A DNA stretch of 59,137 nt, taken from a virus. Lineage: Duplodnaviria > Caudoviricetes. Below are positions 8,891 to 59,137 of this stretch, in pieces. The stretch is from the IMG/VR virus record IMGVR_UViG_3300002461_000254, positions 1-59,137 of that record, one strand, 5' to 3'. The first letter of the stretch is position 1, and each line of letters begins with the position of its first letter. The notes under the pieces were generated by a model. The model saw only the letters and a list, made by a program, of their open reading frames with translations. It was not told where the DNA came from and did not search any database. Both the position numbers and the translations under genes were made by a program.

Positions 8891-10903
8891 TCACAGCCCG
8901 TCCCCCTCGGTCCAGTTGACGGAGACGCAGGCGAGGCGGCGCATGCCTTCACGCGCATCTCGTTCAGCCTCTTCCTTTGATGCACGGGGCGCCCCAAAAT
9001 CGCGGGGGCCATACACGTTCACCCACACCCTTCCAGACTTTGGCTCTGTCCAAGGGGCGATGAGATCGTCCGTGTTGCCCCTCGGGCATTTCCCGCCGGC
9101 CTCCCAATGGCAAAGAGCAACGGCGTACCCGAGCCACATGCCGCTTTCGGACTGCCCCACAACCTCAGCGCGGAGGCCGCTTCGGGTGCGGTACATGCCC
9201 GGCCCGGTGATCTTGAACTCGCTCATCGTCCGATCTCCACGCGAAGCTGCCTCACGGTCTCCGCGCGCTGGACCCTGTAGAGGTCGTTCACGGCGCGGTG
9301 GTTCTTGCGGTTGGCGCGGATCATGTCCGCTCGGCGGGCGCGGGCCTGTGCGATGGGCGCGGCCTTCCGGCGGCGGAACCAGGCGAGCCAGCCGCGGATG
9401 GCGGTGACGGGGTTCATGCTGCCCCCGCTTTGCGCCATTCATCGCGCTTGGCCTCCCACTCGGCGGCGGTCGGTCCGGCCAGGCGAGCAGAGGAATGCCG
9501 ATACTTCGGGTGGATGCCGATGGCGCGCTCTTCCGCAATTTGGCGCATGAACGCTGACTGCGGTTGAAGGTGCTTGCGATTCTGCGGCTCGGGCTTCGGC
9601 CCCTTCTTCTTGCGGCGCTTGTCCGCCTTCGGGGTGGTGAGAACCGGCGGTGAAGGCAGCGTCGGCGTCGTGTAGCCGCGGTCCATAGATGCCATCATGC
9701 CGGCAACTGTGGCGAGGCCCATCAGCCCGCCGCGAAAGCCTAAAGTCCCGCGGATCATTTGATCCCTCCCTTGGTCTGGTTGATCTGTTCCCGAATGGCA
9801 GCGCGCTCTTCGGTGATGGCCTGGAGGGCGACCGAGCCGGATCCGTCCGCGATGGCGCGGGCGAGGTCTTCGGTCGTGCGGGCGAGGGCGTCCTGCAGCC
9901 GCGCGAGTTCCGCGATGATGGCGCGGCGCTCGACCACAAGGCCGGGCGGGCCGCTGTCGGGGCGCTCGCCGGCGATGAACGCCGACAGGTTCCGACCGCT
10001 GATCCGCCGCGCCTTGGTGACGGCGTTCCGGTAGCGCTGCTCGGGCGTGATGGAGAGGTTGACGCTCATGCCGCCCTCCGCATCGCGCGCCTGTTCTCGG
10101 CGTCCATCCGCCGCCGCCGGCGCAGACCGGACAGCATCTCGGACGCGATGTCCTTCACCTGCTCGTCGGTGAGCCAGGAGAGCCCGCCGGCGCGGTGCAT
10201 GCAGGCCTTGAACGCCCGGTCGAAGTCGCGGCCGGACAGGGTGTCGAAGGTGTCGACGAAGCGCTCCAGGCGCTCGCGGGAAGCGGGGCGGCTCATGCTT
10301 CACCGCCAATCGGAGCCCACTGGTCGGGCTGGCGAAACATCCGCATGTCGGGGGAGATGAAGAAGTTGGGCATCGCCCAGCCTTCGCCGGTCCAGCACCC
10401 CTTGCAGGCATACCCTGGGGCCGAACGGCTGTGGTTCAGCCACACCTCAGTGCCATCCTTCGGCGCGGAACTGATGTCCCGCCACGCTGTCGACGATGAG
10501 GTCATGCTGCGGCCCTCCAATCGACGCCGGTCATCTCGGCGTGGGCCTCGGCCCAGGTGTGGAGGAAGCCCTTGGTGTTGGCGCACCCGGTCATCGCAGA
10601 CCAGTGCATGGCGAGGTAGGGACGGGGGTCGCCGCGAAGAGCGGCCAGAAGCTCGCGGTTGCGCTCGATGAGCCACGGGCCGGCGCCGGAAGCCTTGAGG
10701 CTGTGGAGCCGGTCGGCGACCACGGCGACGTCATGCTGGGCGCGGAACTCGTGAGCCTGGCGGATCAGCTCGCGGTCGACGAGGTCCCACCAGGACCAAT
10801 GCTCTGACCCGCGAACGTTCGGACGCGGCACCGGCGTGAGCGCGGCAACGTCACGCCGCTCGAGGTCGGCGAGGTGGGCAGTGAGGGGTGAGGGGAAGGG
10901 CAT
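8891..10903 (-). CDS. cluster of about 7 small early-left hypothetical genes (includes DUF551-like 10293-10505)
   Basis: Chain of ATGA-coupled short ORFs; WRDISSAPKDGT motif in one. Confidence 0.55.
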
Positions 10904-28033: not shown

Positions 28034-28653
28034 ACGAGGCCGGTCGGCAGCGCGACGATATTCTCGACCGCGCGGGACTGATGGCAGACTGGCTCGCCCA
28101 AGCGTTCGGGGCGATCGGGGACGGCAGCGCTGCTGAAGCCGCACGGTGGCTCGCCGCGCATGGCGTGCCAGCCGACCTGATAACCGACCTGCCGATCCTG
28201 CCCGCTACCGTCCGATGGCTCGACCCTGGCGATGGCTTTGCGTTCGCCTCCACCGGCTCCCGGGCGCTGGTGTTCCCGATTTCCGATTGTGAGGCCGCCG
28301 AGGCCGACTTCGGCGACCTTCTCGCATTCGACCCTGCCGCGCCTGACCGCTTCGAGGTCGCCCGCGGCGGGGCATGGGCGCTCGGCGAGGACCAGGTCAG
28401 CGCCGTTCAACTCCGTCTGCACAACACTCCCCTTCAGCTTTGGCGCAACCCCCTCCGCTGGCTTCAGGCCGGCCGGCGCGGGGTCGTCATCCTCGACCAC
28501 GCGAGGGCACCGCATTGGCTCAGACAGATCGGCCCCATTCGAGCGCAGGACGAAGCGCACCGTCAGGAGGTCGCGGCGATGTTCCGCCGTTGGCGGGCCA
28601 TCCCGGACATTGGACTTCCTCCGGCCCAATCACCCATCGCAGCAACACCCTGA
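28030..28653 (+). CDS. hypothetical protein
   Basis: Coupled ORF; LWRNPLRWLQAGRRGVVILD. Confidence 0.65.
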   Translation: MNEAGRQRDDILDRAGLMADWLAQAFGAIGDGSAAEAARWLAAHGVPADLITDLPILPATVRWLDPGDGFAFASTGSRALVFPISDCEAAEADFGDLLAFDPAAPDRFEVARGGAWALGEDQVSAVQLRLHNTPLQLWRNPLRWLQAGRRGVVILDHARAPHWLRQIGPIRAQDEAHRQEVAAMFRRWRAIPDIGLPPAQSPIAATP

Positions 28654-28662
28654 AGGTGCAGC

Positions 28663-28893
28663 ATGCCGCATAGAACGAGCCCGCGTTGCGCCGTCTGCGC
28701 ATTCTTCAGCCCCGTGCTTGGGAACCCCGAGTTTCAGCCGCCCGCGAACCTGCGGATGGGCGAGTGTCGCGCCATGCCTCCGAAGGCAGCTGGTGACGAT
28801 GACGGCGCGCTGATCCGGGGGCGCGGCATTTGGCCGGCCGTCGAGCCGGAAGACTGGTGTGGCCATCATGCGGAGCGTCCCGATGCAGGATGA
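28663..28893 (+). CDS. small Cys-rich (putative Zn-binding) protein
   Basis: CAVCAFF...GECRAMPP...WPAV...DWCGHH. Confidence 0.65.
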   Translation: MPHRTSPRCAVCAFFSPVLGNPEFQPPANLRMGECRAMPPKAAGDDDGALIRGRGIWPAVEPEDWCGHHAERPDAG

Positions 28894-30187
28894 AACCGGG
28901 CCGCTCACCGTCGAGCAGATTGTCTGGCACCGGAAGTTCGGCGTGGGCACGGTAGCCGTCCCAGACGATACCGCGGGGATGGTCGGTGTTGAGTTCGCCA
29001 CCGTGGGACGGAAGCGCGTCATGCGTTCATTCCTTTCCACGCGCCCATTTCCCGCCATCGAGCCGGCCGCTTTTGAGCCGGCGCGGCGATCCGGCCCAGC
29101 CCTAACCATCGTCGCAGCATCAACACTCGCCGCAGGGCGTGCCACGCCGCGGCAAGAGCATGTCGCGGGAATGATCCCGGCCAAGAATGTGACGCTGCTG
29201 TTCGGAGACGGCGGCACCGGCAAGAGCCTCCTGGCACTGCAACTCGCGTTCTCAACAGCGACCGGCCATCCATGGATAGGGATGCCCACCGAAGAGGGCC
29301 GCACGCTGTTCCTCACGGCCGAGGACGAGGTTGAGGAGGTGCATAGGCGCTTGGAGAGCATCTGCCTGAAGACGGGCTATGACCTCGCCGAGGTGGCCGA
29401 GCTCCACATCCTCAGCCTCGCCGGTAAGGACGCCCTCCTGGCCACGGCTGAGGGCCGGTCGGGCATTCTCCGGCAGACGCCACTACTCGGACAGTTGGCC
29501 GCCTGGATCGGCCAGCGCAAACCCGCTCTGGTGGTCCTTGACACCCTGGCCGACCTATTCGGTGGAGAGGAGAACGTCCGATCCCAGGCGCGTCAGTTCA
29601 TCTCCATTCTCCGTGGGATCGCCATCGAGCACGGCGCGACCATCGTGCTTCTCGGACACCCATCGCTGTCCGGCATGACCAGCGGCGCCGGTACGTCCGG
29701 CAACACAGCCTGGAGCAACTCCGTCCGCTCCCGCCTCTACCTCGAAAGACAGGTCGTGCGCGAAGGTGAAAGGATGGCAGAGCCGGATCCCGATGTCCGC
29801 GTCCTGCGCGTCATGAAGGCCAACTATGGGCGCGTCGGCACCGAGTTGCGAGTGCGCTGGCAGGACGGGGTGTTCGTGCCCGTCGAGAACAGTATCGGAG
29901 GTGCTGGTCTGGTGGCAGCCGGGTTAAAGGCCGAGCGCGTGTTCCTCGACCTCGTGGCCACATACACAGCGGAAGGCCGAAGCGTCAGCCCAGCGCCGTC
30001 AGCCGGCTACGCCCCCACGGTGTTCGCCGCCGACGCCAGGGCAGAGGGGCTTACCAAGGGCGCCCTCGCCAAGGCCATGAACCGATTGTTCGCCTCAGGA
30101 CAGATCGCCGTGGAAAGCTATGGCCCTCCCTCCAAGCTCAGGCAGCGGATCGTGGTCAAGGAAGTGAGGCGCTATGATGCCGATTAG
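28883..30187 (+). CDS. AAA_25/RepA-like SF4 helicase
   Basis: GDGGTGKS, LVVLDTL, LLGHPS, SGNTAWSNSVRSR, KANY. Confidence 0.9.
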   Translation: MQDETGPLTVEQIVWHRKFGVGTVAVPDDTAGMVGVEFATVGRKRVMRSFLSTRPFPAIEPAAFEPARRSGPALTIVAASTLAAGRATPRQEHVAGMIPAKNVTLLFGDGGTGKSLLALQLAFSTATGHPWIGMPTEEGRTLFLTAEDEVEEVHRRLESICLKTGYDLAEVAELHILSLAGKDALLATAEGRSGILRQTPLLGQLAAWIGQRKPALVVLDTLADLFGGEENVRSQARQFISILRGIAIEHGATIVLLGHPSLSGMTSGAGTSGNTAWSNSVRSRLYLERQVVREGERMAEPDPDVRVLRVMKANYGRVGTELRVRWQDGVFVPVENSIGGAGLVAAGLKAERVFLDLVATYTAEGRSVSPAPSAGYAPTVFAADARAEGLTKGALAKAMNRLFASGQIAVESYGPPSKLRQRIVVKEVRRYDAD

Positions 30188-45569: not shown

Positions 45570-46061
45570 ATGGCCGGCTATGGCGATGACACGGCTTTCG
45601 CGGCGTGGCTCACCGAGGAGGGGCTCACCCTCCCCGGAGGAGCCCCGACTGCGGCAGTCCTGCGCCAGCGCGGTAGCCGGTACATCGACGCCACCTACGG
45701 CGGCCGCTTCGTCGGCGAGCCCACGGACGGCATTGACCAGGACCGGGCATGGCCGCGCTCAGGCGCCATCGTGCATGGCGTGTCCATCGCGGATGACGTC
45801 GTGCCGAACGCGGTGATCGAGGCCAGTTTCCTCGCAGCGTTCCAGGAGGCGACGACGCCCGGGTCGCTCAGTGGCGCCGCGGTCTCCGGGACGGCCCTCG
45901 TGAAGCGGGAGCGCGTCGAGGGCGCCGTCGAGATCGAATATGCGGTGTCGGAGAAGACCGACCTCGCCGCCGCCTCCCGCGTGATCCTCCCCGCGGTCGA
46001 AGGCATGCTTGCCCCATTCCTTGCGTCCGAGGCCACCGGCTTCGGCATATGGTCCGTCTGA
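45570..46061 (+). CDS. head-tail adaptor
   Basis: RGSRYIDA, QDRAWPR, VPNAVIEA, ERVEGAVEIEY. Confidence 0.75.
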   Translation: MAGYGDDTAFAAWLTEEGLTLPGGAPTAAVLRQRGSRYIDATYGGRFVGEPTDGIDQDRAWPRSGAIVHGVSIADDVVPNAVIEASFLAAFQEATTPGSLSGAAVSGTALVKRERVEGAVEIEYAVSEKTDLAAASRVILPAVEGMLAPFLASEATGFGIWSV

Positions 46062-46426
46062 TGGCCCAGTTCGACTATGGCCGGATGCAGACGAAGGCCG
46101 CGGGCCTGTTCAATCGCTTCCGCCAGGGCGTCGTCACGCTGACCCGGACGCCGACAACGCCGGGCGCGACGCCCATTGATCCCCCGACCTACGGAACGCC
46201 GGTCGTCTACGCCCTCGACGCCGTGGTTCGCGCGGTCGAGGACAAGTTCGTCGACGGCACGCTGGTCTACGCCACCGACCGGCAGGTGATGTGCGCCGTG
46301 CTGCCCATCGAGATCCTGCCCGGCGACACGCTCGCGATCGACGGCAAGGCCGTGACGATCGTCGAGACCATGCGCATCCCCGCCGCGGGCACCGCCGTCG
46401 CCTGGCGCTTCATCGTGCGGGGCTGA
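46061..46426 (+). CDS. head closure protein
   Basis: Position and size; FVDGTLV. Confidence 0.65.
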   Translation: MAQFDYGRMQTKAAGLFNRFRQGVVTLTRTPTTPGATPIDPPTYGTPVVYALDAVVRAVEDKFVDGTLVYATDRQVMCAVLPIEILPGDTLAIDGKAVTIVETMRIPAAGTAVAWRFIVRG

Positions 46427-46427
46427 C

Positions 46428-47438
46428 GTGCCCGCCAACTCATGGGAGCAACTGATCGCGTCGTGGGAGAAGCCCCTTCGGGATGCTTTCCTCGACGGCG
46501 TCTATCGCATCCGCGACGCGGCGCAGATCGGGCTTATCGCCGAGCGGCTCGAGCGCGGTGATGTCGAGGGGGCCCTTCGGGCCGTCGGCATAGACCCCAG
46601 CCGGTTCCGGGAGCTCGACGCGAAGCTCGCCGAGGCCTTCGCCGCCGGCGGGCGCTTCACCGAGAGCCGCATCCCGGCGACGAAAGACCCCAACGGGTTC
46701 CGCCTCGACATCCTCTTTGACATCCGCAACCCCCGCGCCGAGGTCTGGCTGCGCGACCACTCGTCCAACCTCATCCGCCAGATCACTGACGACCAGCGGA
46801 CCATGGTTCGCGCCGCCCTGACGCAGGGCATGATCGACGGCCGCAACCCGCGCGACGTGGCGCTGGAGATTGCCGGCCGGCTCAACCGAGCCACCGGGCG
46901 CCGTGAAGGCGGCCTCATCGGCCTCACATCGACGCAGCAGGAGTGGGCGCGCGGCTATGCCCGCGAGCTCGCCACGGGCGACCCGGCCGCGCTCCAGCGC
47001 CTCATGCGCGACAAACGCTTCGACGCCACGATCCGGCGGGCCATCAAAGAGGGCAGGGGCCTTACCAAGGAGGAAGCCCTGCCGGCGTTCCGGGCCTACC
47101 TCAACCGCGCGCTGAAGATGCGCGGCGAGACGATTGCCCGCACCGAGGCTATGGCGGCGCTTCACGCCTCCGCCCAGGAGGCCATGGCCCAGGCGATCGA
47201 CGCCGGCCAGGTGAACGAGGCCGCCGTCCGCAAGGTCTGGCACTCGGCGCGGGACCGTCGGGTGCGCGACACCCACCGCGCCATGAACGGCCAGCGAGTG
47301 ACGTTTCAGGCGGAGTTCGTCTCGCCGTCAGGCGCGCGGCTTCGCTACCCCGGCGACCCCGCCGCCCCGGCGGCCGAGATCATCAACTGCCGGTGCTGGG
47401 CGGACTACGACATCGATTTCCTCGCCGAGGTCGACTGA
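46428..47438 (+). CDS. MuF / SPP1 gp7-like head morphogenesis protein
   Basis: ETIARTE, KVWHSARDRRVRDTH, YPGDP...INCRC. Confidence 0.9.
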   Translation: MPANSWEQLIASWEKPLRDAFLDGVYRIRDAAQIGLIAERLERGDVEGALRAVGIDPSRFRELDAKLAEAFAAGGRFTESRIPATKDPNGFRLDILFDIRNPRAEVWLRDHSSNLIRQITDDQRTMVRAALTQGMIDGRNPRDVALEIAGRLNRATGRREGGLIGLTSTQQEWARGYARELATGDPAALQRLMRDKRFDATIRRAIKEGRGLTKEEALPAFRAYLNRALKMRGETIARTEAMAALHASAQEAMAQAIDAGQVNEAAVRKVWHSARDRRVRDTHRAMNGQRVTFQAEFVSPSGARLRYPGDPAAPAAEIINCRCWADYDIDFLAEVD

Positions 47439-47854
47439 TGGCCGTCTCCAACCTCTCGTTCGCCGCCCAGGTCGACGGGCTGGTCAAGAAGACCGAGCGC
47501 AACCTGACCGCCGTCTTCCGCGAGAGCGCCAAGCGGGTCATCCAGGAGGCCCAGAACAACGTTCCGGTCGACACAGGCTTCCTGCGATCCTCCCTGCAGG
47601 TCGGCATCAACATGCAGGTGCCGCCCGCTTCCCGGCCTCAGAACGCGCCGGGCCCGGTGCCGAACATCTCGGCGGTGATCGCCGGCGCCAGCCTCGGCGA
47701 CACGATCACGGCCGGCTACACCGCCAACTATGCCCTGTTCGTCGAGTACGGCACCTCCCGAATGGGCCCGCGCCGCTTCGTCGGCCGCGCCGTCGCCAAC
47801 TGGCAGGGCACGGTCAACCGGGTGGTGGCAGAGGTGAACGCTCGGGGTCGATGA
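47438..47854 (+). CDS. HK97 gp10-like neck protein
   Basis: PVDTGFLRSS, YALFVEYGTS. Confidence 0.85.
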   Translation: MAVSNLSFAAQVDGLVKKTERNLTAVFRESAKRVIQEAQNNVPVDTGFLRSSLQVGINMQVPPASRPQNAPGPVPNISAVIAGASLGDTITAGYTANYALFVEYGTSRMGPRRFVGRAVANWQGTVNRVVAEVNARGR

Positions 47855-48041
47855 GGCCTTCGACGTGATCGGCGTCATCCTCGGCCGCCTTCAAGAGGCC
47901 CATCTGCAGCAGTCGCAGCATCATGCGCGCCGCGTCGAGCGCAGTGTTGGCGCGAACCGTCGAGCCCTCGGCCCGGCCCAGCGTCTCAGACGCCTGGTGC
48001 AGCAGGTCGTAAGCCTCAACGTCGGTCAGCTTCAGCGGCAT
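47814..48041 (-). CDS. antisense moron, hypothetical protein
   Basis: 75 aa ORF filling the gap in the tail operon. Confidence 0.5.
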   Translation of the reverse strand: MPLKLTDVEAYDLLHQASETLGRAEGSTVRANTALDAARMMLRLLQMGLLKAAEDDADHVEGLIDPERSPLPPPG

Positions 48042-48092
48042 CGGTGGACGGTAGCAGCGCGCCGCGAAAGCGGGAACTGAAAAGGGTTCGGC

Positions 48093-48506
48093 ATGGCCGT
48101 CTACACCGACACGAAGGTCTGGCGGGCCCTCTCCGCCCGGCTCGCCACGCTGACATTCTCGCCGGCCCTGCCGGTGGCCTGGCCGAACTCGGCATTCGCG
48201 CCGCCCGGCGACCGCAAATGGCTGCGGGTCAACGAACTGCCGGCATCCACCACGCCTTTCGCCCTCTCGGGAGGCACGAGCGAGCGGGTCGGCCTCATGC
48301 AGGTGGACGTGTTCCGCCCCCTGAACGAGGGCCATGTCCCCGCCAAGGAGACGGCAGGCGCCATCGCCGCGCACTTCCCGCCGGCGCTCCGCCTGTTCAG
48401 CGAGGGCGTGAAGGTCGTCATCACCCGATCCGAACTCGGCCCGGTCCTGAAGCAGGACACCGAGATCATGCTGCCCGTGAGCATCCGCTGGCGAGCGTTC
48501 ACCTGA
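48093..48506 (+). CDS. tail terminator (DUF4128-like)
   Basis: VAWPN, GLMQVDVF. Confidence 0.8.
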   Translation: MAVYTDTKVWRALSARLATLTFSPALPVAWPNSAFAPPGDRKWLRVNELPASTTPFALSGGTSERVGLMQVDVFRPLNEGHVPAKETAGAIAAHFPPALRLFSEGVKVVITRSELGPVLKQDTEIMLPVSIRWRAFT

Positions 48507-48567
48507 CCCCGGCTCGAGCCGGCCACACGCCCCGTCCACGCGGGGTTTTTCACACTGGAGAGACCCC

Positions 48568-49050
48568 ATGACGGAGATCAACACGAGCCTGGGCGCCCGG
48601 CTCTACATCTCGAATGCCGCCGTTCTCGACACGATCGACACCGTGACCGAGTTTGAAGGCCTGACCTGGGTCGAGGTCGACCCGGTCGAGAACCTCGGCG
48701 ACTTCGGCGACGAGGCCGCGGCGGTGACGTTCTCCGGCCTCAAGGACGGCCGCATCCGCAAGCTGAAGGGCGCGCGGGATGCCGGCGAGCTCGCCGTCGT
48801 GGTCGGCCACAATCCGACGCAGGTCGGCCAGGTCGCGATGATCGCCGCCGAGGCCACCAAGTTCAACTACGGGTTCAAGGTCGAGATCCCCGACGCGCCG
48901 TCGAACCTCTACACCAACTCGGTCTTCTATTTCAGGGGCCGCGTGATGTCGAAGCGCATGAACGTCGGTGGCAACGGCGACGTGACCCGCAGGACCTTCA
49001 ACGTCGGCATCGACAGCCCGATTTACGAAGACCTGTCGGCGCTGATCTGA
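48568..49050 (+). CDS. major tail tube protein
   Basis: LGDFGD, RIRKLKGARDAG, FYFRGRVMS. Confidence 0.85.
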   Translation: MTEINTSLGARLYISNAAVLDTIDTVTEFEGLTWVEVDPVENLGDFGDEAAAVTFSGLKDGRIRKLKGARDAGELAVVVGHNPTQVGQVAMIAAEATKFNYGFKVEIPDAPSNLYTNSVFYFRGRVMSKRMNVGGNGDVTRRTFNVGIDSPIYEDLSALI

Positions 49051-49060
49051 GGACCGGTCG

Positions 49061-49381
49061 ATGACGATGAACGGCGATACGGACATCACCCTCAATGGCA
49101 AGCCGGTCACCCTGAAGTGCACCCCCCGTGCGCTTCGGGACCTGGATGGCATGGCCGGCAGCTTCAACGACATCCTCAACGGGCTCGTAAGCTTCCGCTT
49201 TTCGACCTACTGCGCCGTCGTCGGCGCCGGTCTCGGCAAGCGTCCCAACATGGTCGAGGACGACGTCTTCGCCTCGGGCCTCGACAATCTCGTCGGCCCG
49301 CTGACCGAGTACGTCGGCCGGCTGATGCGCGGCGGCCGTGAGGCGCCCACCGAGGAGGAGAAGGCCACGGGGGAAGCCTGA
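49061..49381 (+). CDS. tail assembly chaperone (gpG-like)
   Basis: After tail tube; slippery GGGGGAA near the stop. Confidence 0.75.
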   Translation: MTMNGDTDITLNGKPVTLKCTPRALRDLDGMAGSFNDILNGLVSFRFSTYCAVVGAGLGKRPNMVEDDVFASGLDNLVGPLTEYVGRLMRGGREAPTEEEKATGEA

Positions 49382-49629
49382 CCCACTCCGCCTACTTCAC
49401 CTGGCTCATGGAGATCGGGATGGGGTGGATGGGGTGGGACGAAGAGACGACGCTGGACAGCCGCATGACCAGCATCGTCACGGCCTATGAGGGTCGGCAA
49501 GGCATGCTGCGCGCCATTTTTGGCGGCAGCGACAAGGCCAAGCCTGCGGTCGCCGACGGGCTGGTGTCGGCGAAGGACCCGGCCGCGGTGAAGGCCCTGT
49601 TCATGGGGCTGAAGGCCAGGGAGGGTTAG
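49369..49629 (+). CDS. gpT-like -1 frameshift extension
   Basis: Open -1 frame from GGGGGAA: GSLTHSAYFTWLMEIGMGWMGW... Confidence 0.7.
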   Translation, partial: GGSLTHSAYFTWLMEIGMGWMGWDEETTLDSRMTSIVTAYEGRQGMLRAIFGGSDKAKPAVADGLVSAKDPAAVKALFMGLKAREG

Positions 49630-49633
49630 GTGG

Positions 49634-50050
49634 TCAGTGCACTTTTGGAGGCGCGTCGGGCGGCCCATCCTTCAACGCTGAAACTACTCTTTCCAGCGGC
49701 TCTATCAACTGCGGAGGAACGACAACCCCAAGCTCAAACACGTTGTCGAACTGGAGCATCAACGCCGGGTTTTTGGTCTGATCCGCAGCCGGACGAGCCC
49801 CAGTCAAAGTGAGAGGCTGAAGGAGGGCGCTGTCCGCCCCTGCTTTGATGGCAAGGGCCATGTGCTCTGCTTTCAGGCGAGCGACAAGATGCCCGACCGC
49901 GCCGTGTGGAATAGCGATGTTGAGTGTTTTGTCGTCGTCGGTTTCCAGTGCGACGACAAGGCAGTTTCGTTCGATGAATGCCGCAACCGAAACCACGGTT
50001 CGGACATCATGCACCTTCTTCGCGATCCGCACTTCTCGCGATTTCTTCAT
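49634..50050 (-). CDS. hypothetical protein (moron)
   Basis: GGAG RBS; 138 aa. Confidence 0.6.
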   Translation of the reverse strand: MKKSREVRIAKKVHDVRTVVSVAAFIERNCLVVALETDDDKTLNIAIPHGAVGHLVARLKAEHMALAIKAGADSALLQPLTLTGARPAADQTKNPALMLQFDNVFELGVVVPPQLIEPLERVVSALKDGPPDAPPKVH

Positions 50051-50120
50051 TGCGCTCTCCCTTATGAGGCGCGCATCCCATCACTGGCGCAACCGAGAGT
50101 CGACTAAGGGAAGGTACGGA

Positions 50121-50312
50121 TCAGGGCTTCAGATAGCCGTGGGCAGTGAGCCAGTCGCGCAGGATGCGGCGCACCGCCTCGGGGCGGGGGACGGACTGCT
50201 CCAGCGCGAAGGCGTCGAGGGCCGACAGGTCAGGTTCTTGGACGCGCGTCTTGATCGCATCCGATAGAACCGGCGGCCTGCCACGAGATTTTATGGGACC
50301 ATCTATTGACAT
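50121..50312 (-). CDS. ribbon-helix-helix (Arc/CopG-like) repressor
   Basis: RGRPP...LDAFA...RPEAVRRILRDWL. Confidence 0.8.
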   Translation of the reverse strand: MSIDGPIKSRGRPPVLSDAIKTRVQEPDLSALDAFALEQSVPRPEAVRRILRDWLTAHGYLKP

Positions 50313-50335
50313 CGTTCTTTGATGGTCCCATAAAA
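50289..50335 (+). promoter_or_regulatory. operator/promoter of the moron
   Basis: Perfect 15-bp inverted repeat TTTTATGGGACCATC / GATGGTCCCATAAAA flanking TTGACA. Confidence 0.75.
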
Positions 50336-50549
50336 GAGCGAGCCAAGCAAGAGGTTGCAGCCTCTGGCCTGGCTCTCACCTCAACCGACCTGTGATGGAG
50401 ATCGGTCATGGCTGTTCGCCTCATACCTCTTTCGTCGCTTTTCCGCGACCCCCTCGTCCGCCGCGCCTTCGAACGCGCCGAGCGGGACAACCCCGGCGCC
50501 AATGCGTTGCCCGTGCGTTCCCCGGTTCTGTCTGGCGGGGAGGCGGCCC

Positions 50550-50852
50550 ATGCACCGGCGTAATTTCCTTGCGGCGGCAGCGACCGTCGCCCTTCCCACC
50601 GCCGCAGTCGCGGCAACCGTCTCGCTGTATGCGGCTGATGTCGCCGCGATCCAGGCTCTGGCCGACAAGGTGGCAGCCCTCTGCGAGGACTGCTCCCGTT
50701 GCCGGGCAGTATACGAGGCCGGCGGCGATCAGGACTGCGAAGCCTGGACGCTCGCCTCGGACGAGCTTCTGCGAGCGCAGGTCGAATTCACGCGGGCCAA
50801 GGCCGCCCTTCATCAACGCGTCATGACGGACGCCGGCATTCCGACCTTCTGA
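50550..50852 (+). CDS. hypothetical protein with Tat-like N-terminus
   Basis: MHRRNFLAAAATVAL. Confidence 0.6.
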   Translation: MHRRNFLAAAATVALPTAAVAATVSLYAADVAAIQALADKVAALCEDCSRCRAVYEAGGDQDCEAWTLASDELLRAQVEFTRAKAALHQRVMTDAGIPTF

Positions 50853-50973
50853 TCACCGAACTTCGCCCTCTGGCAGGGGCAAGACGCGAACCGAGCTTCA
50901 CAGCGCCCGGTATCGCGAAAGCGAACCCGTGCGTCCGGGCCTGCCAGGGCCGGGCGCTGTGGAGACTACGAAA

Positions 50974-51636
50974 ATGGCAAAAGCACCCAAGACCGAGGCG
51001 AAGGGCTTCGAGCTACCGCCCCTCAACATCGGCGTCATGGAGGTGACGCTGATCGGCGACAGTCCGCTCATCGTCCACGCATGGAGCCGCAAGGCCAAGC
51101 TGGAGATGCTCGGCAAGCAGATGAAGCAGGCCAAGGGCGCCAAGGAGGCGAAGGATCCCAAGGCCGACTTCGAAGCCTCGCTCTACCGCCTGGACGACGG
51201 CTACGGCTTCCCGTCGGTGGCGTTCAAGAACGCAGCCGTCACTGCCGGCACGTCGGTGTCCGGCATCACCAAGGTGGCGGCGCGGCAGGCTTTCCATGTG
51301 CTCGGCGAGGACGCCGACGTGGCAGGCGCGTTCGACGGCGCCAAGTCGCGCGTGAACCTTGTTCGCATCATGGGCGGCGAGCCGACGATGCGCGAGGACA
51401 TGGTCCGCGTCGGCATGGGCACTGCCGACCTGCGCTACCGCGGGGAGTTCACCGACTGGTGGGCGAAAATCCTCGTCCGCTACAACGCGAACGTCCTTTC
51501 GGAAGCGCAGATCCTGAACCTGCTCAACGTCGCCGGCTTCGCTGTCGGCGTCGGCGAGTGGAGGCCGGAGCGCGATGGCATGGGCGGCATGTTCCATGTC
51601 GCCACCGAGAAGGACCTCGAGAGGATCGGCGCATGA
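50974..51636 (+). CDS. solo Cas7/RAMP-like protein
   Basis: VTLIGDSPLIVH, YGFPSVAFKNAA, RYRGEF..W...V.Y, and C-terminal Gly loop AGFAVGVGEWRP...GGMFHV. Confidence 0.7.
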   Translation: MAKAPKTEAKGFELPPLNIGVMEVTLIGDSPLIVHAWSRKAKLEMLGKQMKQAKGAKEAKDPKADFEASLYRLDDGYGFPSVAFKNAAVTAGTSVSGITKVAARQAFHVLGEDADVAGAFDGAKSRVNLVRIMGGEPTMREDMVRVGMGTADLRYRGEFTDWWAKILVRYNANVLSEAQILNLLNVAGFAVGVGEWRPERDGMGGMFHVATEKDLERIGA

Positions 51637-52139
51637 GGGTCGCCGGTTACGAGTTCTCCGAGGGCGCCCGCTTCCAGGCGGGAGCCAGCCAGGACCCCAA
51701 GGTGGTAGGCGAGCATCTGGACCTTCTTCGGAAGCAACAGCATGGCGAACTCACCCCCGAGGATGTCGTCGCCGATGCTCGAAACCCGAACAGCCCTCTC
51801 CACTCGTTTTTCGAGTGGGACGACAGCGCCGCAGCGGAGCAGTATCGGCTCCAGCAAGCGCGCGGGCTGATCCGCGCCGTGGTCGCCATCTACGTCCGCG
51901 AGGACAAGCCAGCGGTCCGGACTAAGGCTTTTGTCCACATCAACGAGCCGGGCGCGCCGCACTATCGCGAGGCCGGCCACGCCATGAGCCTGACGAAGAC
52001 CCGAAAGATGGTCCTCCAGCGAGCGTGGCAGGAGTTGCAGGCATGGAGGAAGCGATACCGCGACCTTCAGGAGTTCAGCGAGCTCTTCGACGTGATCGAC
52101 GATGTCGAGAAGCATCTGCCGAAGAAGACGGGCCACTGA
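51633..52139 (+). CDS. accessory protein coupled to the RAMP-like gene
   Basis: ATGA overlap; GELTPEDVVADARNPNSPLHSFFEWDD...RLQQARGLI. Confidence 0.75.
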   Translation: MRVAGYEFSEGARFQAGASQDPKVVGEHLDLLRKQQHGELTPEDVVADARNPNSPLHSFFEWDDSAAAEQYRLQQARGLIRAVVAIYVREDKPAVRTKAFVHINEPGAPHYREAGHAMSLTKTRKMVLQRAWQELQAWRKRYRDLQEFSELFDVIDDVEKHLPKKTGH

Positions 52140-52192
52140 CGGCCAGGGTTACGGCGAGAGTTCCCTAAAACCTCGCGCCCGCAAGGGTTCAC

Positions 52193-52415
52193 GGCAGGCA
52201 AGGCGGGGTGAGTTGTGGCACGGCAAGTCCGGGCACGGGTTGCAAGGCAGGCTTGGCAAGGTGGGGTTTGGCTTGTCACGTCGAGGCATGGCCGGGCAGG
52301 CGAGGTGGGGCAAGGCACGTCCCGGCAAGCCGCGGATAGGTGTGGCAGGAATGGCGTCGCGAGTTGTGGCGCGGCCCGCTCTGGTGGGGCATGGCCGGCC
52401 ATGGTCAGACAGGCA
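52193..52415 (+). ncRNA. (GGY-NN)n pentamer array in four units; putative guide RNAs
   Basis: Strict 5-nt periodicity with GGCA junctions at 52193, 52246, 52295, 52344 and 52412. Confidence 0.8.
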
Positions 52416-52422
52416 GTTGAAG

Positions 52423-52448
52423 GGGCCTCGGCGCGAATGCCGGGGCTT
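52423..52448 (+). terminator. hairpin closing the array
   Basis: GGGCCTCGGC-GCGAAT-GCCGGGGCTT between convergent transcription units. Confidence 0.55.
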
Positions 52449-52453
52449 AGCCT

Positions 52454-52891
52454 CTAGGGGCAGTTGAATGGGGCGCGGGTAGCCGCGACGATGCACTGGT
52501 TGGCGGCGTTGCCGCAGATCGTCTGCATTGTGCCGGCCACGGTGAGGCGCCCGCGCATCTGGTAGCCGACAGGACAGGCCGATGCGGGAGCGGCTGCGCG
52601 GCGGGCAGGGGCGGTAGTCGCTGGCCGCGTCGGCGCCTGGTTGATGATCGTAGTGTTGTTGATCGTCGACGGTGCCGCGGCGGCAGGACGAGGCCCGACC
52701 CTTACGTTCAAGTTGACGCGAGGCGTGCTCACTCGTGGCGCACGAACGCGAGCCGCGCTCCGCGCGCGAGGCCTAGACGATCGCGCGGATGACCGACGCC
52801 CGCGGCGCATCTCAATAGTGGTTTGCGGAATATCCAGCGCCGCCGTCGGAGCGGCGACAAGAAGATGGGCAGCAAAAAGCAATTCGATCAT
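52454..52891 (-). CDS. secreted Arg/Pro/Ala-rich protein with Cys-containing C-terminus
   Basis: Signal peptide; GGAGG RBS. Confidence 0.55.
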   Translation of the reverse strand: MIELLFAAHLLVAAPTAALDIPQTTIEMRRGRRSSARSSRPRARSAARVRAPRVSTPRVNLNVRVGPRPAAAAPSTINNTTIINQAPTRPATTAPARRAAAPASACPVGYQMRGRLTVAGTMQTICGNAANQCIVAATRAPFNCP

Positions 52892-52964
52892 CGTTTCCTC
52901 CCGCGAAGCTATCGTTAGATGGGCCGATGCTCGCAGAGGTGGTACCGGCTGTCGAGTCGCACAG

Positions 52965-53153
52965 CTAGAGCGGCCTTCCGTATTGATCATACCGCGGTCC
53001 CTTCACCGGCACCGCGATGAGCGCAATCAGGCTGAGGACCGGGAAGAGAAGCCCGAGCAAAAACCAGCCCAGTCCGCTGCGGTTCTTTGACCGCGCGATG
53101 AACGCGCAGAAGCCAGCGGCAACCAACCAGGCGAACAGGATCAGCGGCTCCAT
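52965..53153 (-). CDS. small two-TM membrane protein
   Basis: IARSKNRSGLGWFLLGLLF. Confidence 0.7.
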   Translation of the reverse strand: MEPLILFAWLVAAGFCAFIARSKNRSGLGWFLLGLLFPVLSLIALIAVPVKGPRYDQYGRPL

Positions 53154-53183
53154 GCCGTGCGCTCCGCATAAAAGGAAACGTCG

Positions 53184-55256
53184 ATGACCGACGCGGCCGT
53201 TCTTGGCATCGAAATCAAGACCAAAGGCGCCGATGAGGCAAGGCGCCAGCTTGAGAGCATGTCGAAGTCGTCATCCTCTGCCGAGAAGGCTGTATCCGAT
53301 CTTGCGCGCGGTGTGGGGGTATCCAGCGAAGAAATGGTGCGGCGGCTCCAGACTGCCGCCAAGGCCGCCGACGACTTCAAGCGAGCCGGCAATGCGGCAG
53401 GCGCCAACCTGGCGGACTTCGGACGGGCTGCCGATGGGGCCGGGCGCCAGGTCAGTGACCTGACCGGTGGCGTCAATCGTTTCGGTGTGTCGTTCGCTCG
53501 AGCTTTCTCCGCCGCGGTCATCACGGCGGGCATCGCGGGGGCAGTCAAGGCACTCTCCGACCTCAAGGCCGAGCTTCTCGACATCGAAAACGTTGCCAAC
53601 CTGGCCGGCCTCTCTGTGGAAAGGATGACCGCCTATCAGCAGATTGGCCGGTCGGTAGGCGTCGCCGGCGAAGAGACATCGCGGAATCTTCGTGGCATCG
53701 CCGAAAAGCTGAACGAGGCGCAGAACAGCGAGAACAGCCTGACCCGGATTCTTCGCGCAAATAACATCGCGTTCAAGGACCGCGAGGGCGCCGTCATTAG
53801 CGTCAATCAGGCAATGGAGATCGCCGCCGGCCTGATCGAGCGGGCCAAGACCGAGCTCGACAAGATCGATATCGCCAAGGCGCTTGGCCTCACGGAAAAC
53901 TGGGTTCAGATACTGGAGAAGGGCCCCCGGGCGCTCCAGCAGTCGCTCGGGGAAGTCGAGCGGCTTGGGACCGGCATCAACACCGAGATGGTCGAAAAGG
54001 CCCGCGCTTTTGAAAACGCCTGGAACCAGGCTATGGCGAATTGGGCCACCTATTCGAAGTCGGTCATCTACGACTTGGGCAAGTATATCGGCGGGCTGAT
54101 CACCCAAGCCCAGCGCCTTGCAAACATGGCGCCCGACCAAATCCAGGATGCAACATCACGCGCGACCGCGCGTGGGGATCGAGCGAATGGCGTCTACGAC
54201 CCCGCCACTGGCACATGGAGCGGGCCGAGCCCCAATATGGCTCCGGATGGCTCTTATGTGTCGTTTCTCCCCCCGACCCCGGTCGACCGGCCTCCTGAAA
54301 GCACGATCTCCGGAGAGACAAACGTCCCGCGGGGTCGCGCTCGATCTGGCGGCGGCGGCGGGGGTAACGATACCCTATCTTCCTTCGACCGCTCCCTTCG
54401 CCAAATGGAGGAGCGCAACGCCCTCGCCCGCCAGGAACTGGCGACGATGGGCCTCTCCACACAGCAGCGCGAGGCCGCGCTCGCCTATGAGCGCGCGCTG
54501 AACGTTGCCAAGCGGGACGGGGAGACGCTCACGGAGGACCAGCTCCAGAAGCTGCGGGCGCAGTCCGAGGAGTACGGCCGCATCCAGGCGCAATTGGAGC
54601 AGACCAAGAGGCTGATGCGCGAGCTGCGCGAGCTGTCCGACTTCGCCCGCTCCACCGTCTCCGGCCTGTTCACCGACACGCTCTCCGGGATCCAGCAGGG
54701 CAAGGGGGTGTGGGAGAGCTTCGCTCAGGCCGCCGTGAGCGCGCTCAACAAGATCTCCAACAAGCTGGCCGAGATGGCGATCAACGGCCTCTGGGAGGCG
54801 GCATTCCCGACGTCTGGCGGGGGCGGCGGTGGCCTCTTCGGCGCGCTCCTCGGCGGTGTGCTTGGCGGCCTGGGAGGCGGCGGGGACAAGTTCGCCATCA
54901 AGGCGGCCCAGGGCGCTGTCATCCGGCACGGAAACGTCGTGCCGTTCGCCAAGGGCGGCATCGTGACCGGGCCGACGACCTTCCCGATGTCGGGCGGGCG
55001 CACCGGCCTGATGGGCGAGGCAGGCGAGGAAGGCATCTTCCCGATCCGCCGCATGTCCAACGGCGACATGGGCGTCGCCGCTGCAAACTCGAACCGGCCG
55101 CAGTCGATCAGCCTGACCGTCGTGGTCGAGGGCGCCAACGGCGACCAGCACGTCATCGATCTCGTCCGCCAGGGCGTCGAGGCCGGCATGTCGCAGGTGC
55201 AGGCCAACATCGTGCCCACGGTGCGCGAAGGTCTCAGGCGGGGGGCTCTGCGGTGA
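53184..55256 (+). CDS. tail tape measure protein
   Basis: Long helical protein; C-terminal PFAKGGIVTGPT...MGEAGEEGIFP. Confidence 0.92.
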   Translation: MTDAAVLGIEIKTKGADEARRQLESMSKSSSSAEKAVSDLARGVGVSSEEMVRRLQTAAKAADDFKRAGNAAGANLADFGRAADGAGRQVSDLTGGVNRFGVSFARAFSAAVITAGIAGAVKALSDLKAELLDIENVANLAGLSVERMTAYQQIGRSVGVAGEETSRNLRGIAEKLNEAQNSENSLTRILRANNIAFKDREGAVISVNQAMEIAAGLIERAKTELDKIDIAKALGLTENWVQILEKGPRALQQSLGEVERLGTGINTEMVEKARAFENAWNQAMANWATYSKSVIYDLGKYIGGLITQAQRLANMAPDQIQDATSRATARGDRANGVYDPATGTWSGPSPNMAPDGSYVSFLPPTPVDRPPESTISGETNVPRGRARSGGGGGGNDTLSSFDRSLRQMEERNALARQELATMGLSTQQREAALAYERALNVAKRDGETLTEDQLQKLRAQSEEYGRIQAQLEQTKRLMRELRELSDFARSTVSGLFTDTLSGIQQGKGVWESFAQAAVSALNKISNKLAEMAINGLWEAAFPTSGGGGGGLFGALLGGVLGGLGGGGDKFAIKAAQGAVIRHGNVVPFAKGGIVTGPTTFPMSGGRTGLMGEAGEEGIFPIRRMSNGDMGVAAANSNRPQSISLTVVVEGANGDQHVIDLVRQGVEAGMSQVQANIVPTVREGLRRGALR

Positions 55257-56895: not shown

Positions 56896-59137
56896 ATGAA
56901 GCGCATTCTCGCCCTTGCCCTGCTAGCTCTGCTGGCGGGGAGCTCGCCCGCGGCTGCGGATCCGATCTCCCTTGCCATCGGCGCGCTCGTCACGTCGATC
57001 GGCTCGATTGGCGCCACCGTTGGCGCCTTCGTCACCGGCCTCGGCGTGCTTGGCAAGGCGCTGATCTCCATCGGTCTGTCGCTTGCGCTGTCCTTTGTTT
57101 CGTCGCTGTTCCGGCCCAAGCCGAAGCAGGCTGAAGGCGGGGTTCAAAGCCAAATCCAGATCGGCGGCGACGTTCCGCGCTCTGGCATCTTCGGTAAACA
57201 GTCGACCGCAGGCCACATCGTCTATGTGAACACCTCCGGCGGCAGCAATGCCGTGCTGGAGATGGTGTTCGCCGTTGGCGACGGGCGGCATGAGGGGCTG
57301 TCGCGGGTCTGGGTCAACGGCAAACTGTCCGGCCTGACGCAGCCGGGCGCCGACCCCTACTATGTCGTGGATGGCTTCGATGGGAAGCTGACGCTCACCT
57401 TCGTGCCCGGCACTGCGGACCAGTCGGCACTAGCCTCGCTGGTGGCCAGCGCCAACCCTTCTGGCCGGTGGTCCACCGATCACACCCTGACCGGCATTGC
57501 CTACATCGTCGCGCGCCTTCAGTACGACGAGAAGGTATTTCCCAACGGCGTGCCGCAGCTTCTGTTCGAGATGGAGGGCCTGCGCCTCTACGACCCTCGC
57601 TTCGACAGCACGAACGGCGGGACGGGATCGCAGCGCTGGGATGATCCGACGACCTGGGCCTATTCCGAGAACCCGGCCATCCAGCTCTACAACTACCAGC
57701 GCGGCATCTTCCTGGACGGCGAGCGCGTCCTCGGCATGGGTCTGCCCGCGAGCGACCTCAACACCGCGTCCTATATCGCCGCGGCCAACATCTGCGACGA
57801 GACCGTCAGCCTCGCCGGGGGTGGCACCGAGACGCGCTACCGTTGCGGCTTCATCGTCAGCGACGGGATGCAGCACTCGGAGGTTATCGATCGCTTCGTC
57901 GAGGCCATGGGCGGCGTGATTGCCGAGCGGGCCGGGCTCTACACCGTGTTCGCTGGCGTGGCGCAGACCTCCGTCGTGACCATCACGGATGGCGATCTGG
58001 TGCTTGGCCGGCCCCGCACCTTCTCCGGCAAGAAGTCCCGCACCGAGCGGGTCAATGCCGTCTTCGGGACCTATTCCAATCCGGATGAGCAATGGAAGCC
58101 GGTCGCGTTCCCCGCGTTCACGTCCGACACGTTCGAAGCTGAGGACGGCGGCGAGCGTCTCGCCGTCAACCTCGACCTCGCGCAGGTTTTCTCAGTCACG
58201 CAGGCTCAGCGCCTGGCAATGATCCAGCGCCGTCTCGGTCGCCTCCAGGGCACGGCCGAAATCTCCCTGCCGTTCGCCTACATCCGGATCGAAGCCGGAG
58301 ACTGGATGACCTGGCAGTCGGCGCGTTTTGGTTTCACGAAGGTCTGGCAGGTCGTTTCCGCGCGGATCGAGGCTGACCAGACTATCCGCCTGTCGCTCCG
58401 CGAGATCGCTACCAGCGTCTTCTCGTGGATCTCCGGGGACGACGAGCTGGAGGTGGCGCAGCCTGGCCTCGTGCCAAGCCGGCCGCCTCTCGCCGGCGGG
58501 CTGAGCGAGTTCGCCGCGTCGCCGGTCACGATCGAAGGCGACAATGGAAGCGCTGCCCCGGCAATCCGCGCCAGCTGGAATCCGATCGAAGACGAGACCG
58601 TCGCGGCCGTCATCATCGAGCATCGGATCGGCGCGAGCGGCGAGGCTGGTCAGACGCGCTCCGTCAACCGCTTGGGCGGTTTCGTGGTCATTTCCGACGG
58701 CATCCAGCCGAACACCGTCTATCAGGTGCGCGGTACGATCGAGACAGTGCCAGCACGTGAGACGACGTGGTCGTCTTGGGTCAGCGTGACGACCCCAGAT
58801 GTGCGGATCACCGAGGGGGAGCTCGACGACGCCATCACTGCGGCAATCACCACGGCCGGCACCAACGCGGCGCGGGCGCTCCAGGACGCGCAGGATCTGA
58901 TCGCGGCGCTTTCGGCAGACGCGAACCGCTCGCAGCCGGCATCGGCGCGGCTTAACCTCGACCTGTCCAGCCGCTTGGAGCAGCTCTCCGGCGCGGTGCT
59001 CGCTTCTCAGGCTGCGGTCGAGGACTTCAAGGGCGTCCTCGGTGACCTTGGCTGGGAGCGCATCGGCCCCGGTGGTGCATCCCGGTTCCGCGCCATCGAT
59101 GTCGTCAACAATGGCCTGACCACGCTGACGACGCAGA
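56896..59137 (+). CDS. tail tip / host specificity protein (J-like), truncated by the window
   Basis: Open frame to the window end; YDPRFDSTNGGTGSQRWDDPTTWAYSENPA, AAANICDE. Confidence 0.88.
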   Translation, partial: MKRILALALLALLAGSSPAAADPISLAIGALVTSIGSIGATVGAFVTGLGVLGKALISIGLSLALSFVSSLFRPKPKQAEGGVQSQIQIGGDVPRSGIFGKQSTAGHIVYVNTSGGSNAVLEMVFAVGDGRHEGLSRVWVNGKLSGLTQPGADPYYVVDGFDGKLTLTFVPGTADQSALASLVASANPSGRWSTDHTLTGIAYIVARLQYDEKVFPNGVPQLLFEMEGLRLYDPRFDSTNGGTGSQRWDDPTTWAYSENPAIQLYNYQRGIFLDGERVLGMGLPASDLNTASYIAAANICDETVSLAGGGTETRYRCGFIVSDGMQHSEVIDRFVEAMGGVIAERAGLYTVFAGVAQTSVVTITDGDLVLGRPRTFSGKKSRTERVNAVFGTYSNPDEQWKPVAFPAFTSDTFEAEDGGERLAVNLDLAQVFSVTQAQRLAMIQRRLGRLQGTAEISLPFAYIRIEAGDWMTWQSARFGFTKVWQVVSARIEADQTIRLSLREIATSVFSWISGDDELEVAQPGLVPSRPPLAGGLSEFAASPVTIEGDNGSAAPAIRASWNPIEDETVAAVIIEHRIGASGEAGQTRSVNRLGGFVVISDGIQPNTVYQVRGTIETVPARETTWSSWVSVTTPDVRITEGELDDAITAAITTAGTNAARALQDAQDLIAALSADANRSQPASARLNLDLSSRLEQLSGAVLASQAAVEDFKGVLGDLGWERIGPGGASRFRAIDVVNNGLTTLTTQ

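Follow-up and report, generated by a model that had tools for sequence, protein, structure and literature searches.

A VIPR locus with staggered guides among the tail genes of a temperate-type siphophage, and its predicted targets in related phages

What is encoded between the tail chaperone and tape measure protein genes of the virus record IMGVR_UViG_3300002461_000254, and at what might it be aimed? The record, referred to below as the window, is linear, 59,137 bases long and complete-looking (CheckV 100%), and it belongs to a temperate-type siphophage. An earlier note on its sequence had pointed to a gene for 220 amino acids (aa), a coupled 168-aa partner, an array of GGY-NN pentamers and a closing hairpin, all within the tail-gene block, and had read them as an RNA-guided system used in conflict between phages. 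The coordinates of these elements hold. Our combined findings suggest that the locus is very probably a VIPR (Viral Interference Programmable Repeat) system with staggered guides, most likely silencing the tail genes of sibling or related phages.

VIPR is a CRISPR-like, RNA-guided DNA silencer that was described in two preprints in April 2026 (bioRxiv 10.64898/2026.04.26.720920, 10.64898/2026.04.26.720927). Its reported parts are Vipr, which is a minimal RAMP protein, in most cases a single vap gene, and guide RNAs (vrRNAs) of 9-16 YNNGG repeats (10.64898/2026.04.26.720920), with one Vipr protomer per repeat that grips GGY and displays NN (10.64898/2026.04.26.720920, 10.64898/2026.04.26.720927). 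According to the first preprint, the complex reads double-stranded DNA (dsDNA) as dinucleotides separated by one skipped base and represses transcription, its natural targets are competing phages and satellites, and 667 systems of seven types (I-VII) have been catalogued (10.64898/2026.04.26.720920). The earlier note had likened the locus to phage systems of this name, and the two preprints do describe them; its remark that the locus was otherwise undescribed falls away, as the kind is already in print (10.64898/2026.04.26.720920).

The Vipr protein and its pentamer array

No Pfam or NCBIfam family was found for the 220-aa protein (P0001) or for its 168-aa partner (P0002). P0001 was assigned to phrog_4652 and has a large family, with 7750 proteins at E <= 0.001 (90% clusters), or 3370 clusters at 50% identity at the same threshold. 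A family profile (A1) built from 67 sequences matched the PDB chain 36pp_D, "SUSP1 Vipr protein" (E 1.1e-13), and had a sole match in the genome of Escherichia phage SUSP1, at 28486-29061 on the minus strand (E 4.1e-16). This open reading frame (ORF), YP_009199429, is annotated as hypothetical, and hhalign aligned it with A1 over 168 columns at 98% probability (E 1.6e-13), with ~24% identity over the aligned columns. The ORF can be recognised as Vipr because residues named in the structure preprint fall at the same numbers in it: H17, E71, M72, R138, C173, D177, W178 and R179 all agree with the numbering used there. A ninth named residue, 175, is T in the pyrimidine pocket described there and V in the RefSeq SUSP1 protein.

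The counterparts in P0001 of SUSP1 residues H17, R138, D177, W178 and R179 are H35, R156, E195, W196 and R197. Four of the five GGY-holding residues are thus identical and the fifth is a conservative change (D177 to E195), while R156 and R197 are invariant in the A1 alignment. The AlphaFold model of P0001 has a pLDDT of 95.8, and its best solved relatives in a Foldseek search were Csm3/Cas7 subunits (6xn3_F, E 3.5e-6; 69 chains at E <= 0.001). Judged by sequence and by this model, P0001 is a Vipr homologue with a predicted minimal Cas7/Csm3 fold and putative GGY-contact residues, in keeping with the RAMP/Csm3-like assignment made from the letters alone.

The start codon of the P0002 gene shares bases with the stop codon of the vipr gene (ATGA), and a G-rich, non-coding tract with a 5-base period begins immediately after the P0002 stop. 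GGY pairs at lag 5 numbered 16, compared with 2.07 +/- 1.44 in 1000 dinucleotide-preserving shuffles, none of which reached 16. Across both strands of the 59-kb window, at least six of nine GGY in phase were found at the array only. By our own tally, 28 of the 41 array units are GGY and 6 are GTY. Junctions of four bases break the pentamers at 52193, 52246, 52295 (GGCAGGC), 52344 (GGCAGGA) and 52393 (GGCCGGC), giving spacings of 53, 49, 49 and 49 nucleotides (nt) and bearing out the period of about 49 nt noticed earlier; 49 nt corresponds to ten pentamers minus one shared base. We read the array as four head-to-tail guides of ~10 units each with a 1-nt overlap, in which the last G of a constant GGCAG-type unit opens the next guide (Table 1).

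Upstream of the first guide is a structured leader that ends in the first GGCAG junction at 52193. The same leader heads the arrays of seven related loci (L001, L002, L012, L019, L020, L021 and L058). Its consensus hairpin has 12 pairs, one of them with a compensatory change, and in hairpin 2, in an alignment read by eye, CCC/GGG becomes TCC/GGA in two loci; the fold energy of the single leader sequence was no better than that of shuffles. A second type of leader, unrelated to that of the window, occurs in other close relatives, ~40-60 nt ahead of the first guide in L011, L014, L015, L018, L019 and L020, and consists of a hairpin, GCCGGA...TCCGGC, followed by GGC.AGGATCA.GGTAGGGCAGGC. Both types are present in L019 and L020, where each opens a sub-array.

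At the other end, the closing hairpin probably marks where the array transcript stops. It lacks a U tract, shuffled sequences fold just as well (z 0.06) and it was not listed by the terminator scan, whereas the arrays of relatives close with hairpin-plus-T-run terminators. An Rfam scan of 49500-53300 found no hammerhead or other family and returned one sub-threshold snoRNA match. Window positions 52197-52426 recur without a single change in a 230-nt contig that comes from a different study, of a drinking-water metagenome (run X4). This phage, with its guides unaltered, is therefore also present beyond the sample of origin.

We then compared 66 loci bearing homologues of the gene (10 from genomes, 52 viral contigs and 4 named phages), a set that includes near-duplicates such as L001/L013, L031/L032, L038/L039 and L061/L062. 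An array of in-phase GGY was found on the strand of the gene in 60 of the 66 loci and on the opposite strand in none. Such arrays beside homologues had been proposed in the earlier note as a check on its reading. Six loci had no scored array (L009, L016, L021, L043, L045 and L060); L016, L043 and L060 stop shortly after the gene, and L021 has a short array by eye. Across the 66 loci, junction distances peak at 5k-1, that is at 44 nt (30 cases), 49 (50), 54 (51), 59 (37) and 64 (16), and neighbouring values are rare. Among 45 distinct 49-nt segments, the unit opens with G, has a second G that is replaced by T in 20-33% of units, and carries a pyrimidine (C or T) at position 3, and positions 4-5 are nearly without information; the junction is GGCAGGC, with A in 91%.

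The irregularities of the window's own tract nevertheless raise the alternative that it is not a working array, being instead a decayed remnant, a coding stretch or a DNA-level repeat with some other role. About a third of its units (13 of 41) depart from GGY, unit 10 of guide 1 is one base short, the last junction reads GGCCGGC, an ORF (52102-52467) is open across the tract, and the end hairpin lacks a T run. However, a conserved period of five with free fourth and fifth positions does not fit codons, and the shared orientation of arrays and genes would be hard to explain under this alternative. In addition, the vipr gene and its key residues are intact, the stretch is preserved letter for letter in the drinking-water contig, two of the guides have exact and non-random targets (see below), and the preprint itself notes that vrRNAs are often internally degenerate (10.64898/2026.04.26.720920). 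We therefore regard a non-working array as very improbable.

Features that define VIPR are found together at this locus: a Vipr homologue, its GGY residues, at least four tandem YNNGG/GGYNN units with hypervariable NN, no CRISPR array or Cas1, a viral record, and 1-nt-skip matches to mobile elements for two of the four guides. The closest comparison is with the type II system of SUSP1 (YP_009199429, vap1, four vrRNAs; PDB 36pp). Both are phage-borne, without recognised cas genes, and combine a two-gene operon with GGY-NN guides on the same strand; the H, R, W and R contacts are kept in the homologous Vipr; and the predicted targets are other mobile elements, read with a 1-nt skip that passes over the wobble base, as reported for SUSP1 matches (10.64898/2026.04.26.720920). 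In type II systems (the SUSP1 / P. fulva clade), however, each vrRNA is reported to have its own invariable structured 3' tail, and the accessory gene is vap1 (10.64898/2026.04.26.720920). The guides of the window have no 3' tails of their own and overlap by 1 nt behind a single structured 5' leader, no guide lies upstream of the gene, and no sequence similarity links the accessory protein to vap1. Thus, on sequence grounds, the locus is a VIPR system but is not of type II architecture. Its guides resemble the "staggered vrRNA arrays" mentioned in a figure legend of the preprint (fig. S18), in which adjacent vrRNAs overlap by 1 nt (10.64898/2026.04.26.720920); here neighbours share one base at the junction GGCA|GGC with a 49-nt step, and relatives follow the 5k-1 rule.

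The locus also differs from the Csm3/Cas7 backbone of type III (and type VII) CRISPR-Cas, with which the protein shares 8-14% identity. No Cas1 was found in the window, where Cas2, Cas3 and Cas10 were not searched individually, and no CRISPR-like tandem repeat was found there, in a search by TRF that did not list the pentamer array either. The ORF list shows no Cas10-sized or nuclease ORF at the locus (Cas10 was not searched by profile), and the record contains no second gene of the P0001 family. The absence of CRISPR claimed in the earlier note thus stands within this scope. Compared with type III Csm/Cmr, there is a single RAMP gene without Cas5/6 partners, the step is 5 nt rather than 6 nt, and the code is gapped; type III cuts RNA, whereas VIPR is reported to silence DNA (10.64898/2026.04.26.720920, 10.64898/2026.04.26.720927).

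The family also includes the Gordonia phages Ecliptus and UmaThurman, 27 Mycobacterium phage records (SwagPigglett among them) and Pseudomonas phage LESphi2. The actinophage loci resemble that of the window in having a Vipr homologue (41-44% identity), a P0002 homologue and GGY arrays with 9/9 units in phase. In Ecliptus (L063, 2944-4556) the cassette likewise lies between the tail assembly chaperone and tape measure genes. Unlike the window, Ecliptus and UmaThurman have the order vipr, array, accessory, and in SwagPigglett the array is upstream of the gene. In UmaThurman (L064, 3572-3907) the annotated "hypothetical protein" gp40 lies on the GGY array and is probably no gene. The clade is very large and takes in prophages of alphaproteobacteria as well as sequenced phages of Gordonia and Mycobacterium, in which these genes are still annotated as hypothetical.

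Predicted targets of the guides

To estimate what the guides may recognise, we recast each as an NNx pattern with a 1-nt skip and searched it in a viral collection (viral_contigs). Guide 1, with 20 fixed bases, had a single exact match (20/20), in a fragment of a sibling phage (G006). It falls at the homologous site of the major tail gene. The major tail proteins of G006 and the window share 92.5% identity, and the site encodes NGDVTKRTFN in G006 compared with NGDVTRRTFN in the window. Against the window's own major tail gene (48973-49001, + strand), guide 1 matched at 17/20, with mismatches in units 6 and 7, and the next-best sites in the window reached 13/20. Under our first reading of the guides, self-matches did not exceed 13 of 16-20, and the 17/20 match appears once guide 1 is read as 10 units. 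That ten-unit reading is supported post hoc, because units 9 and 10 (TT, AA) lengthen the target match. Either the three mismatches in two neighbouring central units spare self, or some self-repression occurs.

Guide 3, with 18 fixed bases, had six exact matches in the viral collection, five of them distinct. Four of the five are in J-type central tail fibre genes: three share one site in homologous tail fibre proteins (phrog_5616 and phrog_31) of a tail module like that of gene transfer agents (GTAs), where two of the three contigs were classed as proviruses, and the fourth falls within the phrog_31 "central tail fibre J" gene of a phage with low GC. The remaining match is one sequence on two contigs, in an unknown 191-aa ORF. 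Controls of the same composition, with the order of units reversed or with a skip of 2 nt or 0 nt, gave 0 matches each. We estimate the background at ~0-1 exact matches, because guides 2 and 4 gave 0 and 1.

These results bear on the possibility that the guides regulate the phage itself, tuning its own late tail genes, for example by keeping them silent in the lysogen. The position of the cassette within the tail operon would suit such a role, as would the 17/20 match of guide 1 to the major tail gene, which stands well apart from its next-best sites in the window. Yet the exact match belongs to the allele of the sibling and not to self, and in the preprint perturbation of NN pairing abolished silencing (10.64898/2026.04.26.720920). 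Moreover, the site of guide 3 is absent from the window's own J-type gene, and the best matches of guides 2, 3 and 4 in the window are 13, 13 and 14 of 18, none of them at tail genes. Regulation of the phage's own genes therefore seems improbable to us.

For guide 2 the best partial match was 15/18 in contig G001 (permutation fraction 0.017), which we did not count as a target. The sole exact viral match of guide 4 (L076) was judged to be due to chance, as the frame is closed 12 codons upstream and the contig is low in GC. Guide 4 also had 33 exact matches in metagenomes, none of them near tail genes or homologous to the tail-module proteins of the window.

One 9-kb contig (G005) was matched by several guides. 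It carries an exact match to guide 3, a 14/16 match to guide 1 at its major tail gene (permutation fraction 0.01) and a 15/18 match to guide 4 at the first codons of its tape measure gene (permutation fraction 0.03). At most, these matches hint that the guides converge on a single kind of competitor.

A sense-strand position in codon phase 0, which makes the wobble base the skipped one, is common to the match of guide 1, the four J-type matches of guide 3 and the partial matches in G005. Guides of mRNA sense cannot pair with mRNA, and this fits DNA targeting. It also speaks to another alternative, in which the filament binds or blocks transcripts, as Csm3/Cas7 of type III does, rather than DNA. 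The nearest solved folds from Foldseek are indeed RNA-targeting Csm3 subunits. However, every supported target match has the sense in which a guide could not pair with the transcript, the ORF list shows neither Cas10 nor a nuclease gene at the locus, and the homologous SUSP1 system is reported to bind dsDNA (10.64898/2026.04.26.720920, 10.64898/2026.04.26.720927). We regard RNA targeting as very improbable.

Taken together, the matches suggest targets among the tail genes of related phages: the major tail gene of a sibling for guide 1 and J-type tail fibre genes for guide 3. The evidence for these targets is the identity of the genes, the sites and the controls, and not a shared peptide motif. 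The predicted targets are genes of other phages, in line with the phage-phage conflict that the earlier note had supposed.

Proposed mechanism and implications

By analogy with type II of SUSP1, the operon and array may be transcribed together and the array cut into vrRNAs of ~50 nt. Some ten Vipr protomers would then line each vrRNA, one per pentamer, gripping GGY and displaying NN, and the filament would read dsDNA as NNx NNx, form an R-loop triplex and block transcription without cutting. One subunit per pentamer, a non-contiguous code and silencing rather than cutting had been anticipated in the earlier note and are what the preprints report for type II; by extension they may hold here. 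A co-resident or incoming relative would be unable to build tails, while the phage's own alleles would escape by a few bases.

In the least supported step, the accessory protein would probably assist at the DNA, like vap1 of SUSP1. P0002 has no sequence relationship to vap1; the P0002-type gene is conserved and coupled to the vipr gene. A guide of L020 (at 4201) matches the P0002-like gene of L014 (3957) at 17/18, at a conserved AYVHINEP motif, but a permuted control also gave one such match, so this may be due to chance.

Several observations weigh against the silencing of relatives' tail genes by a VIPR system. In the protein, the Y-pocket residues E71/M72 of SUSP1 are A87/A88 in P0001, and D177 is replaced by E. 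In the array, a third of the units are degenerate, no RNA run was found to contain the locus, and no sigma-70-like promoter was found in 50300-53300. Among the guides, the self-match of guide 1, at 85%, lies above the preprint's target line of at least 80%, beyond which no self-hits are reported there. Guide 2 has no exact match in the viral collection, and guides 2 and 4 are without a supported target there or, for guide 4, in metagenomes. The shared motif GKTPNAYV is not independent evidence, because the NNx pattern fixes the peptide of any in-frame match. Finally, 166 guides from 48 related loci matched the window no better than unit-permuted guides, and 156 guides of relatives showed no excess of matches in 558 kb of DNA at any skip length, apart from the arrays themselves.

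It is conceivable, if rather doubtful, that the cassette forms a linked "guide plus immune allele" module inside the tail operon and serves kin discrimination among near-identical phages. Relative to the cassette, the phage's own versions of the genes that its guides would attack in relatives lie ~3 kb upstream (major tail gene) and ~4 kb downstream (tail fibre gene). If they are so linked, a guide and the self allele evading it by only 3 bases would rarely be parted when mosaic siblings recombine. In the head-to-tail genes closest to the island with the cassette, nucleotide identity to the sibling is 87-90%; further upstream it is 79%. Were this linkage real, the near-self guide, with its 17/20 match, would preserve a record of guides originating in, or drifting from, the gene family of the phage itself, and Ecliptus, with the same insertion site between chaperone and tape measure genes, would be a second case.

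As a VIPR system probably directed at relatives, the locus is no new kind of system; it gives a family that was first described a few months ago a natural and well-resolved example, with a staggered, tail-less guide array and a conserved 5' leader. Its predicted targets offer a concrete case of self versus sibling, a difference of three bases in the major tail gene, that bears on the specificity of a gapped code in nature.

The island and its surroundings

Table 1 Positions of the VIPR locus, its guides and neighbouring tail genes in the window
Feature	Positions	Strand	Remarks
Major tail protein gene (phrog_158)	48568-49050
Two small chaperone-position genes	49061-49629
Island holding the VIPR cassette, ~3.5 kb	49630-53183		Between chaperone-position genes and tape measure gene
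vipr gene	50974-51636	+	220-aa Vipr protein P0001 (minimal RAMP/Cas7-like, predicted)
Accessory (vap-like) gene	51633-52139	+	168-aa protein P0002; start overlaps vipr stop
Structured leader of array, 57 nt	52140-52196	+	Hairpin 1, 52154-52176; hairpin 2, 52177-52188
GGY-NN pentamer array	52193-52397	+
vrRNA guide 1	52197-52250	+	10 variable units (unit 10 1 nt short) + GGCAG; NN: AA GG GA GT AC AA CG AC TT AA
vrRNA guide 2	52250-52299	+	9 variable units + GGCAG; NN: TT AA GG TT TT AC GA AT CG
vrRNA guide 3	52299-52348	+	9 variable units + GGCAG; NN: GA GG AA AC CC AA GC TA GT
vrRNA guide 4	52348-52397	+	9 variable units + GGCCG; NN: AT GT GA GT GC CC CT GG AT
Closing hairpin, 10-bp stem	52423-52448	+
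Tape measure protein gene	53184-55256
Own J-type tail fibre orthologue	56896-59136		Same PHROG families as guide 3 targets, 30% identity

Five further small genes in the island are not tied to VIPR, at 49634-50050 (-), 50121-50312 (-), 50601-50852 (+), 52454-52990 (-) and 52965-53153 (-). The ORFs of 138, 83 and 178 aa had no PHROG match, and those of 63 and 62 aa fell into phrog_25971 and phrog_9201, respectively, both of them families of unknown function only. Inspected by eye, the 62-aa ORF resembles a membrane protein, the 178-aa ORF is rich in Cys and a twin-arginine-like signal is present in the 83-aa ORF. These small genes look like moron cargo.

The fragment of the sibling phage (G006, L088) has 79-90% DNA identity to window positions 45570-49630, and the likeness ends exactly at 49630 (G006 position 9035), the start of the island with the VIPR cassette. 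Past this breakpoint, G006 has unrelated genes and then host-like ccmE-type genes, so that G006 may be a truncated resident prophage.

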